Source of the DNA: an uncultured Trueperaceae bacterium
GTDB taxonomy: Bacteria > Deinococcota > Deinococci > Deinococcales > Trueperaceae
NCBI GenBank assembly: GCA_963727505.1
Contig: CAVSGP010000014.1
Coordinates: 1 to 64,000, forward strand
Direction: 5' to 3'
DNA length: 64,000 bases
The notes beneath the pieces were generated by a model. That model had not been told where the DNA came from. It did not search any database and saw only the letters and a list, made by a program, of their open reading frames with translations. Made by a program: the position numbers and the translations under genes. The first letter of the stretch is position 1; every line of letters begins with the position of its first letter. This document shows positions 6,175 through 35,154 of the stretch, piece after piece.

Positions 6175-7658
6175 TCAGCGATCGCTCGAACCGGTACCCA
6201 CGGGCTCGGAACCGGGCCCGCCTTCGGACCCCGTCGCGCGTAGCGTTGACGCCGGCGGGATCGACCGCTGGTGACTGCGCACGAGGCCTAGGGTTCCGGC
6301 CGCCGGTCGCTTGGGCGACTCGCCGTCCCCATGGACCCTTCCGATGCGCCCCGGGCGAAGGCTGTCCGCCCCCGGGTCTTCGGCGACCGCCGCGCGCAGG
6401 AACACGAACAACACCATCGCGAAGAACGCCAGCACGAAGGCCACGGCCGTCACCACGGCGGTCCGCTGCTCGACTGCGGCTGCTCCGGTACCGAGGCGCG
6501 TTGAACACGCCCGCCATGCTCGGCACCAGCTTGTCGGCCACATCGATGAGCGGCGCCGCCTGCGAGACCTTGTCGTACGCCTGCTGCGCGCTGTCGAGCT
6601 GACGCTGGAGCTGCTGCGCTGTCTGTTGCTGGGTCGCGAGCTGGCTCCGCAGGTCGCTCGCCTGCTTCGAGAAGCCGTCGAGCTGCTGGCCGACCGTCCG
6701 GCGCTCGGCGACGTAGCCCGCCAGGTCCGCGGTCTGCTGCTGGAGCTGGGCCCGCGCCACCAGGGTCGCGAGGTCCTGGCTCGCCGCACCGGGTGTGCTG
6801 GGCACCGAGGCGATGACGTCGGTGAGCTGCTGCGCCAGCTCCGGCGAGAGCACGCCCTGGTTGCTGAGCGCCTGCATCTGGGCCGCCAGATCGGCCGGCT
6901 TGCCCTGGCTGCGGGCGGCGACCACACTCTGGAGCATCGCTTGCTGCGCCTTGGCCGTCGCGACGCTACGGTCGAGCTCATCGAGCTTCTCCTGAGCGGA
7001 GGTGGTGCGGGTGTCGAGCGCGTCGAGCTGCGCCTGCAGGGAGCTGCGGTCGTCCTGCTTCTGGAAGCCCGCCCATTGCGTCTCGGCCTGGGTCAGCGCC
7101 GTCGTCAAGCTGGTGAGCTGGGCTGTTCATGGTCGAGCGCACGCCCCCGAGCGCCTTTCCGATCGAGCTGCGCGCGGCGTCGGCGCTGGCGTTGGCCCAG
7201 GCGTTCGCCAAGGCGGCCGCTCGCTTCGGGTCGGTGGACGTGACCTCCTGCGAAACGATCAGCGGGTCGCTCCCGCCCCCGGAGACCTTGGTCACCGTGA
7301 CCGCCTCGGCGAGCTGCTTCGCGCCGAAGTCACTCGGCAACGAGGGCGTCGCCTTGACGGCGCTCGCGAGCACGTCGTGCGAGAGCGCGACGGTGCGGTA
7401 GGCGTCGAAGCCGATCTGCGTCACCGAGTTGACGTCGATCATGTTCTGCTGGAGCTGGCCGTTCTGGAGCGTCTGCCCCTGCACCTGCAGGGGCGATACT
7501 CGCACCGTGGCGGTGGCCTGGTAGCGCTCCGGCTGGAGCTGCAGGACGGCGAAGGCGAGCACGGCGATGCCCACGGAGACGCCGAGGATCCAGCGCAGCC
7601 CGCCCTTGAAGATCAGGTAGAGCTCGCGCAGCGAGATCTCGTCCTGAGGCTCACCCAC
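6175..7658 (-). CDS. wzz: Wzz/GumC-type polysaccharide chain-length determinant (several frameshifts: near 7122 and about 6465-6500)
   Basis: N-terminal DEISLRELY plus TM, central Gln-rich coiled coil, C-terminal TM (RTAVVTAVAFVLAFFAMVLFVFLR), distributed over several frames. Confidence 0.8.
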
Positions 7659-31350: not shown

Positions 31351-33399
31351 ATGCCCAACATCCGCAACGTGGCCGTTCTCTCGCACAGCGGGGCGGGGAA
31401 GACGTCGCTCGTCGAGGCGATGCTCTACCGTGCCGGCGCGATCCCGAACCTCGGCAGGGTCGAAGACGGGAGTACGGTCTCCGACCATACTCCCGAGGAG
31501 AAGCGCCGCAAGATCTCCATCTACACCTCGATCCATCCCTACACCTGGAAGGGCGAGGCGTTCAACGTCCTGGACACCCCGGGTTACGCCGATTTCGCCG
31601 GCGAGATCCGCGGCGCGCAGGCGGCGGCCGACGCAGCGCTGGTCTTGGTGTCGGCGGTGTCGGGTGTGGCGGTCGGGACCGAGCGGGTCTGGTCCTCGAG
31701 CGTGGAGCGTGAGCTCTCGAGCCTGTTCGTGATCAACAAGATGGACCGCGAGAACGCCGACTTCTTCCGCACCATGGCGGACATCGAGGCCAGCCTCCAG
31801 GGCAACATCGCCGCCATCCAGATCCCCATCGGCCAGGCCGAGGATTTCCGCGGCATCGTCGACCTTCTCACCATGAAGGCCTACGTCTGGCCCGAGGGAG
31901 AGCCGCAGGAGGTCCCTGTCCCCGACGAGGTGGCCGGCGTGGCAACGGAGTACCGCGACCGGCTCATCGAGGCCATCGTCGAGACCGACGACGAGCTGAT
32001 GATGCAGTACCTCGAGGACGCGGACCTGGACGCCGACGCACTCATGCGCGCCTTCGACAAGGCCGTGCGCTCCGGCGAGCTCACGCCGGTGCTGCTCACC
32101 TCCGCCACCCGCGTCATGGGCGTCAGCCTGTTGATGGATTTCATGGTCCACGGCGTGCGGCACGTGAAGGACCATCGGCCGCTGGCCGTCGAGAAGGGCG
32201 AGCCGCCCGAGCTGGGCGAAGGGCATCCCTTCGGAGCCCGCGTGTTCAAGACGGTGGTCGACCCCTACCTCGGCAAGGTCTCGCTGATGCGGGTGCTGTC
32301 CGGCAGCGTCAAGGCGGGTAGCAACGTGCACGACCCCAACCGCGAGGCGGACGTCCGCGTGTCGCACCTGTACGTGCCCAACGGCAAGGACCTCTCCGAG
32401 GTCAAGGAGCTGAACGCCGGCATGATCGGCGCCATCACCAAGGTCGAAGAGGTCAAGACCGGCGACACGCTGTGCGATCCCGCGCATGTCTTCCAGCTCG
32501 CGCCCATCCGCTTCCCCTCTCCCGTCATGGCGCTGGCGCTGACGCCCAAGTCGCGCGGCGACGAGGACAAGATGTCCGACGGGCTCCACAAGCTCCTCGA
32601 CGCCGGCCCCACCCTGATGCTCGAGCGCAATGCCGACACCCACGAGACGGTGTTGTGGGGCATGGGCCACGTGCACCTCGAGATCGCCGTCAACGCCCTC
32701 AAGGACCGCTTCGGGGTCGAGGTGGACACCCGCCCGCCGTCCGTCGCCTACCGGGAGACCATCGGCGGCAACGGCGACGCCCGCTACCGCCACAAGAAGC
32801 AGACCGGCGGTGCCGGGCAGTTCGCCGAGGTGGCGCTTCGGGTCGCGCCCCTGACGCGCGGCGAAGGCTTCCAGTTCACGTGGAAGGTGGTGGGCGGCTC
32901 CATCCCCACGCAGTTCCAGCCGAGCTGCGAGAAGGGCGTCAAGAGCGCCCTGGAGGCGGGCGTGCTGGGCGGGTTCCCGGTGCAGGACGTGCAGGTCGAG
33001 GTCTACGACGGCAAGGATCACCCCGTCGACTCCAAGGACATCGCCTTCCAGATCGCGGCGGCGCATGCGTTCAAGGAGGCCATGCAACAGGCCAAGCCGG
33101 TGCTGCTCGAGCCCGTGGCGCTCCTCAAGGTCCGCGTCCCAGACCGCTACACCGGTGACGTCATCTCGGACCTCAACACCCGCCGTGGCCGCATCCTGGG
33201 CATGGACACCGAGGGTTCGGTGAGCGTGGTCAGCGCGCACGTTCCGATGGCAGAGATCCTGAGCTACTCCCCCGACCTGCGCTCGATGACGGGCGGCCGG
33301 GGCGTGTTCTCGCTCAAGTTCGAGCGCTACGACGTGGTGCCGAGTCAGGTCGCCGACCGGGTGCTGGCCGACCGCCAGCAGGAGAAGGCGGCGTCGTAG
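31351..33399 (+). CDS. Elongation factor G paralogue (EF-G2)
   Basis: Five-domain EF-G; G1 SHSGAGKT, G2 RKISI, DTPGY, NKMD, KKQTGGAGQF; not in a str operon. Confidence 0.9.
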   Translation: MPNIRNVAVLSHSGAGKTSLVEAMLYRAGAIPNLGRVEDGSTVSDHTPEEKRRKISIYTSIHPYTWKGEAFNVLDTPGYADFAGEIRGAQAAADAALVLVSAVSGVAVGTERVWSSSVERELSSLFVINKMDRENADFFRTMADIEASLQGNIAAIQIPIGQAEDFRGIVDLLTMKAYVWPEGEPQEVPVPDEVAGVATEYRDRLIEAIVETDDELMMQYLEDADLDADALMRAFDKAVRSGELTPVLLTSATRVMGVSLLMDFMVHGVRHVKDHRPLAVEKGEPPELGEGHPFGARVFKTVVDPYLGKVSLMRVLSGSVKAGSNVHDPNREADVRVSHLYVPNGKDLSEVKELNAGMIGAITKVEEVKTGDTLCDPAHVFQLAPIRFPSPVMALALTPKSRGDEDKMSDGLHKLLDAGPTLMLERNADTHETVLWGMGHVHLEIAVNALKDRFGVEVDTRPPSVAYRETIGGNGDARYRHKKQTGGAGQFAEVALRVAPLTRGEGFQFTWKVVGGSIPTQFQPSCEKGVKSALEAGVLGGFPVQDVQVEVYDGKDHPVDSKDIAFQIAAAHAFKEAMQQAKPVLLEPVALLKVRVPDRYTGDVISDLNTRRGRILGMDTEGSVSVVSAHVPMAEILSYSPDLRSMTGGRGVFSLKFERYDVVPSQVADRVLADRQQEKAAS

Positions 33400-33477
33400 G
33401 CGCAGCGTCTCGCCTCGGTACGGCCTCCGTCCGCTTCCGCGCGCGCAGTCGCGTGCGCTGTGCCGATCGGGACGGCG

Positions 33478-34236
33478 TCAGCGCTTCTGCGGCGAGAGCA
33501 GCGGCGCCAGGTTCATGCCGCTGAGGTAGGCCAGGAACGACGGCAGGATCGGCAGCACGCAGGGGGAGAGGAAGGACAGGGCGCCGGCCCCGAAGGCCAG
33601 CGCCAGCGTGGGCGCGGCCATGGTGCCGAACAGGGCGCTCTCGGCGCTCCCCATGTTGGCCAGGTAGGGGGACAGCGCGTTGAGCGCGCCGGTCAGCAGC
33701 AGCACGCCCACGGCGATGAGCAACACCGCCCCGACCTTCTCGAGCACGCCCGAGTAGCGCCGCAGTGCCCGCGTCAGCGGCAGGAGCTGGGACAGGGCCA
33801 GGAACGGCAGCGAGAAGCCGAGCGAGTAGGCCAGCAACAGGAGCCCTCCCTGCGCCCCGCCGCCGCTGGTGGCCGCGATGCCCAGGATGCCGGCCAGGAT
33901 GGGACCGATGCAGGGCGTCCAGCCCGCGGCGAAGGCGACGCCCACCACCGCCGAGCCCAGGTAGCCGCTCGGCTTGCGCATGAGGTGCACGCGCAGCTCC
34001 TGCTTGAACACCGGCAGCGGCACCACGTCCAGCATGATGACGCCCATCACCACCAGCAGTACCCCGGAGACGACGCGCAGGGCGCTGCCGTAGGCGAACA
34101 GGAGCTGGCTCAGCAGCCCGGCGCTGAAGCCCAGCGCCACGAACACCGCCGAAAGGCCGGCGACGAAGGCCAAGGTGTGGAGGGCCAGGTGGACCCGCAG
34201 CGGGAGCCCGGTCTCGGCGCTCGCCTCCGTCCTCAT
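33478..34236 (-). CDS. ccdA: Cytochrome c biogenesis thiol-disulfide transporter CcdA (circularly permuted)
   Basis: GWTPCIGPIL in the middle; the normally N-terminal LAFGAGALSFLSPCVLPILPSFLAYLSG is at the C-terminus. Confidence 0.88.
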   Translation of the reverse strand: MRTEASAETGLPLRVHLALHTLAFVAGLSAVFVALGFSAGLLSQLLFAYGSALRVVSGVLLVVMGVIMLDVVPLPVFKQELRVHLMRKPSGYLGSAVVGVAFAAGWTPCIGPILAGILGIAATSGGGAQGGLLLLAYSLGFSLPFLALSQLLPLTRALRRYSGVLEKVGAVLLIAVGVLLLTGALNALSPYLANMGSAESALFGTMAAPTLALAFGAGALSFLSPCVLPILPSFLAYLSGMNLAPLLSPQKR

Positions 34237-34260
34237 GGTGGTGCCTTCATGGCGCTGCCG

Positions 34261-35154
34261 TCATAGCGACGCTAGCTGACTGCGCACGTCTTGCGCGAGC
34301 TCGCGACCCAGCTCGTCGGCCTCCTTGGCCTCCCCGCTGACGCTGGCCTGCAGGGTCGTCTCGCCACGCAGCACGGCGCCGAACAGCGTCAGCTCGCCGT
34401 CGTCGGTGACGTTCGCCAGCGCGCCGACCACGCACTCGCGGCAGGCCTCGTCGCTCTCGGGCGGGCCCTGCCGCAGGGAGAAAGCGAAGGAGCGCTCGGC
34501 ACGCACGCGGTCGAAGCTGGGGCGGTGCTGCAGCGAGTAGGCCACCTCGAACGCGAGGTCATCGTCGGCGCGCACCAGCAGCCCCAGGGCGCCCTGACCG
34601 GGCGCCGGGGCGAAGGTCTCGGGATCGAGCACGTTGTCGAGCCGATTGCGATGGTCCAGCACGATGAGAGTGGCGGCGGGGACCAGCAGCCCGTCCAGTT
34701 CGCCGGAGGTCAGCAGCTTGAGGTCCCCTTCGATGGAGCCGGATACCTCGACGGCCTCGACGCCTCGATGCTGGCCGGCCAGGTAGGCGGCGTCCCGTGG
34801 CGTCAACACCCCCACGCGGGCACCCTGGGGCAGGTCGGACAGCGCGCGCGTGCCCTTGGTGACCAGCGCAGTACGCGGCTCCAGCCGGCGTGACACGGCC
34901 GCCAGCGTGACCTCCTCGGGCAGCGCCAGGGGGAGCGTCTCGAGCGGGGCCACCGCCACGCCGATCTCCCCGTTCACCAAGGCCTTCAGGAGGGGATCGT
35001 CACCGTCGGCCGGCTTCGCGGCAGCGTTCTTGATGGTGCGGAGGGCGAAGTTCACGTCCGGCCACTCGTCCGTCAGTTGCTCGAGCACTTCCCGAGCCTG
35101 GCGCAGCGCGAGTGCGCCGTCGCGGTTGCCCAGCACGATTCTTGCCATGGCCAT
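34261..35154 (-). CDS. Hydroxymethylbilane synthase (HemC)-fold protein with degenerate active site
   Basis: LALRQA, LPQGARVG, PAPGQGALG, AERSF retained; catalytic motifs altered. Confidence 0.8.
   Translation of the reverse strand: MAMARIVLGNRDGALALRQAREVLEQLTDEWPDVNFALRTIKNAAAKPADGDDPLLKALVNGEIGVAVAPLETLPLALPEEVTLAAVSRRLEPRTALVTKGTRALSDLPQGARVGVLTPRDAAYLAGQHRGVEAVEVSGSIEGDLKLLTSGELDGLLVPAATLIVLDHRNRLDNVLDPETFAPAPGQGALGLLVRADDDLAFEVAYSLQHRPSFDRVRAERSFAFSLRQGPPESDEACRECVVGALANVTDDGELTLFGAVLRGETTLQASVSGEAKEADELGRELAQDVRSQLASL

Follow-up and report, generated by a model that had tools for sequence, protein, structure and literature searches.

A probable natural circular permutation of the transmembrane redox protein CcdA in the Deinococcota

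The permuted ccdA locus

The window analysed here is a stretch of 64,000 nucleotides of contig CAVSGP010000014.1 from an uncultured Trueperaceae bacterium (assembly GCA_963727505.1). Its minus strand encodes a CcdA-like membrane protein of 252 amino acids (33478..34236), delimited in the sequence and in the list of open reading frames by an ATG start at 34236, with an AAGG about 8 bp on its 5′ side, and a stop codon at 33478-33480. The first five helices of this protein correspond to TM2 to TM6 of canonical CcdA (residues 17-183; 33688..34188, minus strand), as assigned by alignments with the Thermus CcdA chain 5vkv_A and with the canonical CcdA encoded elsewhere in this genome, and by an AF2 model. 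Among them lies the GWTPCIGP motif, in which Cys109 (codon 33910..33912, minus strand) represents the canonical TM4 cysteine. The helices are followed by a linker of predicted extracytoplasmic location (residues 184-210; 33607..33687, minus strand), comprising the former C-terminal tail and the former N-terminus, and recognised by a gap in the BLASTP alignment and by its lack of lysine and arginine. Finally, the same two alignments identify a relocated helix, TM1′ (residues 211-238; 33523..33606, minus strand), as canonical TM1; its LSPCVLP motif contains Cys226 (codon 33559..33561, minus strand), the canonical TM1 cysteine. Both cysteine codons are found where the original prediction, made from the sequence alone, had placed them.

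Beyond the ATG the open frame continues for just 8 codons (260 amino acids in all) and it contains no internal stops; no SPC-type helix is present upstream of the ATG, either in the open frame or in the upstream sequence. With the stop codon of a hemC-like gene only 24 bp away and the frame only 8 codons longer than the annotated protein, there is no space for an N-terminal SPC helix, in agreement with the earlier reading that no upstream copy of this motif exists.

The hemC-like gene upstream (34261..35154, minus strand) encodes a divergent porphobilinogen-deaminase paralogue and is separated from permuted ccdA by a gap of 24 bp. It matches the Pfam family Porphobil_deam at 99-102 bits, over the N-domain (cofactor-binding) only, and a stronger HemC with 224 bits is encoded elsewhere in the genome (C15:69264, on contig 15). 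The hemC-like gene and permuted ccdA are probably co-transcribed. The two genes remain neighbours in the genus and in genome G019, and the gene order in genomes G012 and G016 is hemC-like, redoxin, permuted ccdA. Since the hemC-like gene stays linked to both redoxin and permuted ccdA in the latter two genomes, its role is perhaps tied to the redox module, and the paralogue may act there rather than in tetrapyrrole synthesis.

On the opposite strand, a gene for an EF-G-like GTPase with all five EF-G domains of Pfam (31351-33399, plus strand) converges on permuted ccdA; its listed open reading frame extends 87 codons 5′ of the likely start.

Segment order, topology and predicted fold

The protein is a CcdA homologue, yet it is not collinear with the DsbD_TM family. 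It matches the Pfam profile DsbD_TM (PF02683) at 45.6 bits, above the curated cut-off of 27.1, and this match aligns residues 21-181 with profile positions 48-215 of 219, the first ~47 positions being absent at the N-terminus. In a phmmer search of the PDB, Thermus CcdA (5VKV) was the sole family matched (2e-26), and it was matched in two segments, with query residues 210-247 aligned to residues 4-41 of the chain and query residues 20-192 to residues 42-210. The genome's canonical paralogue likewise aligns by BLASTP in two segments, residues 14-195 with its residues 66-251 (40% identity, 1e-34) and residues 208-237 with its residues 2-31 (70% identity, 3e-10). The swapped order of these segments is clean and far beyond chance. 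It was anticipated that the chain would start at canonical TM2, carry the SPC helix last and give a split alignment in swapped order, and the profile, Thermus CcdA and the canonical paralogue all agree on this arrangement.

The canonical order, with TM1 and its SPC motif at the N-terminus, is thus replaced by TM2-6 followed by TM1, with the old termini joined and the new ends located in the loop between TM1 and TM2. The two redox cysteines characteristic of the CcdA family are both present in Pro-Cys motifs within the helix that opens each three-helix repeat of the fold, C109 in TPC and C226 in SPC. In comparison with canonical CcdA from Thermus thermophilus (5VKV), the window protein shares the family, the two Pro-Cys cysteines, six helices and a similar length, and its relatives also share the association with genes for thioredoxin-fold partners. 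However, the helix order is 2-3-4-5-6-1 rather than 1-2-3-4-5-6, and the termini, which are outside in canonical CcdA, are predicted to be cytoplasmic in the window protein, where the linker joins the former termini. The transmembrane core and cysteines are also those of the DsbD beta domain and of redoxin-CcdA fusions, to which the NCBIfam matches are weak; these proteins have extra soluble domains or helices, and TM1 precedes TM4 in all 124 of the long proteins.

The distribution of charged residues fits a topology with both termini in the cytoplasm and the linker outside. Lysines and arginines number 2 in the N-terminal tail, 4 in loop 71-92, 3 in loop 151-163 and 2 in the C-terminal tail, and they are absent from loops 48-51 and 123-128 and from the linker, giving 11 on the predicted inside against 0 on the outside. 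The proposal that the permutation had moved the termini to the cytoplasmic side is therefore consistent with this positive-inside count.

Six hydrophobic helices are indicated by the AF2 model and by a hydropathy scan. The alignment-based AF2 model (pLDDT 76.8, pTM 0.73) consists of six long helices, with the helix broken at each Pro-Cys motif; in TM1′ the break falls at residues 222-227, around SPC. In a Foldseek comparison of the model with the PDB there was no match at E 0.001, and 5VKV came out on top at E 0.028 (prob 1.0, TMq 0.48), no other structure being conspicuous. By VIA-align, 170 residues of the model were aligned to 5VKV (Z 5.8, rmsd 4.9; model 13-204 to chain 35-224). The structural match to 5VKV spans TM2-6 only, with rmsd values of 4.9-6.7, and the moved helix is absent from it because the aligners are sequential. 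The model thus gives moderate support for a CcdA fold, and the case is carried by the evidence of the sequence.

Distribution of the permuted form

The permuted gene is a regular feature of the genus to which the window belongs. Among 41 related genomes, it was found at full length in all nine others of the same genus, as one collinear match with 82-95% identity in eight of them and in two contig-end pieces in the ninth (G008), and eight more distant genomes gave a single collinear match with 54-80% identity. Canonical paralogues in these relatives are recognisable by a match in two pieces, with the C-terminal piece of the query located upstream. The expectation that relatives would show the same order was borne out, and an N-terminal SPC helix was present in none of the 12 orthologous loci that were read.

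Across 364 genomes of the phylum Deinococcota, 55 pass a threshold of E 1e-45 and 54 of these matches are collinear. By family, the permuted gene occurs in 52 of 127 genomes of f1, in addition to the window genome, and in one of 23 genomes of f3. No match passed this threshold in f2 (0/125), f4 (0/68) or f5 (0/19), and the match in f6 covers query residues 17-194 only, over which the permuted order is not established. A complete genome of the family, G304, contains two permuted copies (G304:C1:1927048-1927764 and G304:C1:3263347-3264063) with identical scores and 68% identity to the window protein, probably the result of a recent large duplication or a repeat.

The nearest proteins share the same order. 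A search of a collection of 5.8 billion proteins yielded the 100 best clusters at 90% identity, with 50-100% query coverage; SPC follows TPC in 99 of them, and the remaining one is a fragment of 145 amino acids. The next 20 clusters after these are canonical, with a coverage of about 64-77%. Names attached to some of the nearest clusters are those of Trueperaceae, Deinococcales and Deinococcota MAGs. A scan of contigs with back-translated alignment patterns also matched canonical CcdAs and hence says little on distribution; among the 80 loci listed, 2 are permuted, 72 canonical, 2 ambiguous in their motifs and 4 unclassed. Matches in one metatranscriptome run are confined to short conserved pieces at 90-95% likeness, such as the TM4 motif, and are uninformative on expression.

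Overall, the open reading frame at 33478-34236 very probably encodes a functional, naturally circularly permuted CcdA.

Function and relation to canonical CcdA

CcdA proteins take electrons from thioredoxin in the cytoplasm and deliver them to a thioredoxin-like protein on the extracytoplasmic side, the classic client being a protein of the TlpA/ResA type. In five of the seven distant loci that were annotated (G012, G016, G011, G021 and G010), a gene of the AhpC-TSA/Redoxin type (181-268 amino acids) adjoins the start of the permuted gene or overlaps it. G030, the sole genome outside f1 with a permuted gene, has a DUF3179 gene and a DCC1-like thiol-disulfide oxidoreductase just upstream (L095 3541-5189), and no TlpA-like redoxin there. 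The locus of a further MAG (L015) has neither redoxin nor DUF3179/DCC1-like neighbours. Unlike in the more distant relatives, an adjacent redoxin gene is absent in the genus of the window. The window's own genome contains six redoxin-family loci, none of them adjacent to permuted ccdA, and no close orthologue of the TlpA-like partner; the best matches are partial, with 36-38% identity, and weak TlpA-like matches are located within the ccm cluster (C5:267715) and at C10:256-606.

Since a TlpA/ResA-type neighbour is the classic client, we infer that the permuted protein performs the same job, the export of reducing equivalents. By analogy with canonical CcdA, it most likely still supplies reducing power to an extracytoplasmic thioredoxin-like protein, and its mechanism is probably unchanged: the Cys226/Cys109 pair would take electrons from cytoplasmic thioredoxin and hand them on to an extracytoplasmic protein of the TlpA/ResA type.

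The same genome also encodes a canonical CcdA of 260 amino acids (L013 1429-2211, minus strand, on contig 5), beside a ccmA-like ABC gene. It has the canonical helix order and is linked to ccm genes, and a tree places it outside the permuted clade. In all five f1 genomes that were checked, canonical ccdA adjoins a ccmA-like gene, and not a hemC-like gene or a redoxin gene, and these copies are 47-62% identical to the canonical copy of the window genome. The latter bears an insertion of ~35 residues, Gly/Ser/Val-rich and of low complexity, in the loop between TM1 and TM2. As the permuted form is opened at this same loop, the insertion suggests that the loop tolerates large changes.

Two genomes bear on the relation of the permuted protein to cytochrome c maturation. 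In G006 (same genus, 96% complete), CcmE and a ccmA-like gene are present, and the permuted gene is the sole match in a search with DsbD_TM. The slot of canonical ccdA is empty in G006 on an uninterrupted contig, where the orthologue of a secreted-looking protein of 212 amino acids and the ccmA-like gene that flank it are directly adjacent (L108, contig 13, ~6177-7645). This arrangement suggests that the permuted protein may serve cytochrome c maturation in G006. In G007 (96% complete), CcmE and ccmA-like genes were not found and the permuted gene is kept, which argues for a role not limited to the Ccm system; the function of permuted CcdA is thus not necessarily cytochrome c maturation.

It could be proposed that the permuted protein is functional but has diverged to an altered role, with another redox partner or direction or as an obligate helix-swapped dimer, rather than in classical reductant export. 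Such a role would accord with a separate paralogue lineage alongside the ccmA-linked canonical genes of the five f1 genomes, with the retention of the gene in G007, with a linker that has invariant S197 and E199, and with the linkage to a divergent HemC paralogue. However, the neighbour in distant relatives is of the standard TlpA/Redoxin type, the usual client of CcdA; every family-defining motif is intact; and G006 appears to depend on the permuted form alongside its Ccm system. We therefore regard a diverged role as unlikely and favour a permuted CcdA that still exports reducing equivalents.

Origin and recurrence of the permutation

The order 2-3-4-5-6-1 presumably arose by an in-frame head-to-tail fusion of two tandem ccdA copies, after which the first copy would have lost TM1 and the second TM2-6. 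The junction can be compared directly in a pair of related proteins. Residues 3-220 of the permuted protein P0121 align with residues 68-277 of the canonical protein P0123, which has 278 residues, and residues 220-254 of P0121 align with residues 6-40 of P0123; the permuted chain thus corresponds to a canonical C-terminus run directly into a canonical N-terminus. In the window protein, 12 residues (196-207) separate the two BLASTP segments, and the canonical paralogue has 9 and 1 residues left over at its ends, 10 together, which points to a junction of the same type. In sequence terms the junction is as tandem fusion and truncation would predict, and fission followed by refusion would fit it equally well.

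Candidates for stages in this process were sought among related proteins. Neither tandem (12-TM) nor 7-TM intermediates occur among the matches listed, comprising 150 top representatives and 124 long proteins. Four proteins considered as intermediates from their aligned ranges (P0291, P0315, P0312 and P0319) each have a single N-terminal TM1. A derivation in situ from the ccm-linked canonical ccdA was likewise set aside, that gene being a separate conserved lineage with different neighbours.

The existence of permuted CcdA is not confined to the Deinococcota. A Chloroflexi MAG locus among the 80 of the contig scan (L052) encodes a permuted CcdA whose nearest relatives include, among the matches listed, the permuted proteins P0121, P0122 and P0128, a further permuted set at 43-47% identity, and about 88 canonical Anaerolineae-type proteins at 48-61% identity. 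The permuted CcdAs of the Chloroflexota (L052; P0121, P0122 and P0128; P0214-P0240; and P0304, named Dehalococcoidia) share with the window protein the breakpoint loop and the order of TM2-6 followed by TM1. They differ from it in their linkers, are only 35-46% identical to it and form separate clades. When 1.84 billion cluster representatives were searched exhaustively, 12 of the best 150 were permuted, as called from the order of four segment HMMs.

Trees were computed from the shared TM2-6 core, over ~200 columns, in quick IQ-TREE runs in which the root is unknown; their rows were drawn from the match lists by sampling at a fixed step, and proteins outside 200-330 amino acids or with other than one match per motif were dropped. 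In a tree of 79 rows, the permuted proteins fall into three starred clades, one of which is nested within canonical Anaerolineae-type proteins. On the maximum likelihood tree of 108 rows, in which 44 of 105 branches are unsupported, 9 changes of order are needed and at least 3 are forced by starred branches. Monophyly of the 32 permuted rows fails the AU test (delta lnL 144.3, p 1.8e-6), and on these alignments a single origin for the permuted CcdAs of Deinococcota and Chloroflexota is rejected.

One ancient permutation, subsequently spread by horizontal transfer, would account for the fact that every permuted form breaks at the same TM1/TM2 loop, and the weakness of the deep branches leaves it some room. 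We nevertheless consider it quite improbable, in view of the AU test and of one group of Chloroflexota proteins in particular: clade A (L052, P0121, P0122 and P0128) is nested among 16 canonical Anaerolineae-type proteins that form a starred clade, and has the distinctive C-terminal tail of those canonical proteins. Repeated permutation is thus the preferred reading, with rearrangements in other lineages having occurred independently at the same loop. A fuller version of it is about evenly balanced between acceptance and doubt, namely that permutation at the TM1/TM2 loop is recurrent in CcdA, with at least three origins, one of which founded the family-wide clade of Deinococcota, and that the permuted form can fully replace the canonical one, as in G006, where no other DsbD-type protein accompanies a System I Ccm cluster.

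Maintenance of the gene and significance

The permuted gene is under purifying selection. Across 31 aligned permuted proteins, down to 47% identity, C109, C226 and their flanking prolines show no variation, and ~45 further positions are invariant, S197 and E199 of the linker among them. NG86 estimates of dN/dS against nine close orthologues are 0.10-0.27 for the gene as a whole and 0-0.07 for the moved helix (residues 209-240), and the linker (residues 196-208) is near neutral within the genus at ~0.9-1.5, a value that derives from few sites.

These estimates bear on the suggestion that the gene is a decaying, non-functional leftover from tandem duplication of ccdA, and the canonical paralogue the working copy. 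The presence of canonical ccdA beside the ccmA-like gene of the same genome and the missing redoxin partner in the genus might be read in this way, but a leftover would hardly retain such low dN/dS ratios, lowest on the moved helix itself, or both cysteines and their neighbouring prolines across all the aligned proteins, and the gene is retained in G006 and G007, each 96% complete, without a canonical copy. This explanation is accordingly very unlikely, and a natural circular permutation that keeps both cysteines, as the original prediction had it, is upheld by the swapped alignments, the relatives and the purifying selection.

An artefact of assembly or sequencing, in which a local misjoin or frameshift had put the TM1-coding piece behind the gene, can be discounted almost completely even though the genome is a draft of 15 contigs, given the same order in the 54 collinear matches among 364 independently assembled genomes and in all but one of the 100 nearest protein clusters, which stem from several sources, an open frame, and Logan contigs that match the start, linker, TM1′ and stop, with one bridging contig. 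The Logan contigs come from two studies and cover 34123-34332 and 33845-34352, including the junction of the start with hemC, and 33462-33655, from the linker through TM1′ to the stop, all without a single difference; 33300-34182 is spanned by a contig from a related strain, and no joints are reported. The local misassembly against which the original prediction had cautioned is therefore not seen in these independent metagenome contigs, which between them bridge every junction.

The CcdA family is well studied and its structure has been solved. Natural circular permutation is well known among soluble proteins and, to our knowledge, has rarely been documented for polytopic helical membrane proteins. 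No account of a permuted CcdA or DsbD emerged from full-text searches of literature outside subscription journals. The authors of a 2018 preprint on pseudo-symmetric membrane folds stated that they were aware of no circular permutation among membrane proteins (10.1101/465302).

The permuted form is of interest for the architecture and evolution of membrane proteins rather than for any new biochemistry. If it can indeed fully replace the canonical form, a cysteine-bearing helix that is normally first into the membrane could enter it last and still pack centrally, and the protein would constitute a natural experiment on the order of membrane-protein folding and on the elevator mechanism proposed for CcdA. 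The coexistence of both forms in one genome provides a clean pair for testing the order of helix insertion during folding. The same pair would bear on the motion of the two three-helix inverted repeats, TM1 being tethered to TM6 rather than to TM2, and on how such rearrangements arise.

Profile annotation covers TM2-6 only, and hence the permuted architecture is invisible in databases. Permuted members are labelled there as 'cytochrome c biogenesis protein CcdA', 'sulfite exporter TauE/SafE family protein' or 'hypothetical protein', and among the 12 permuted cluster representatives the few that are named (a Dehalococcoidia MAG and 'bacterium') are all annotated as plain CcdA.
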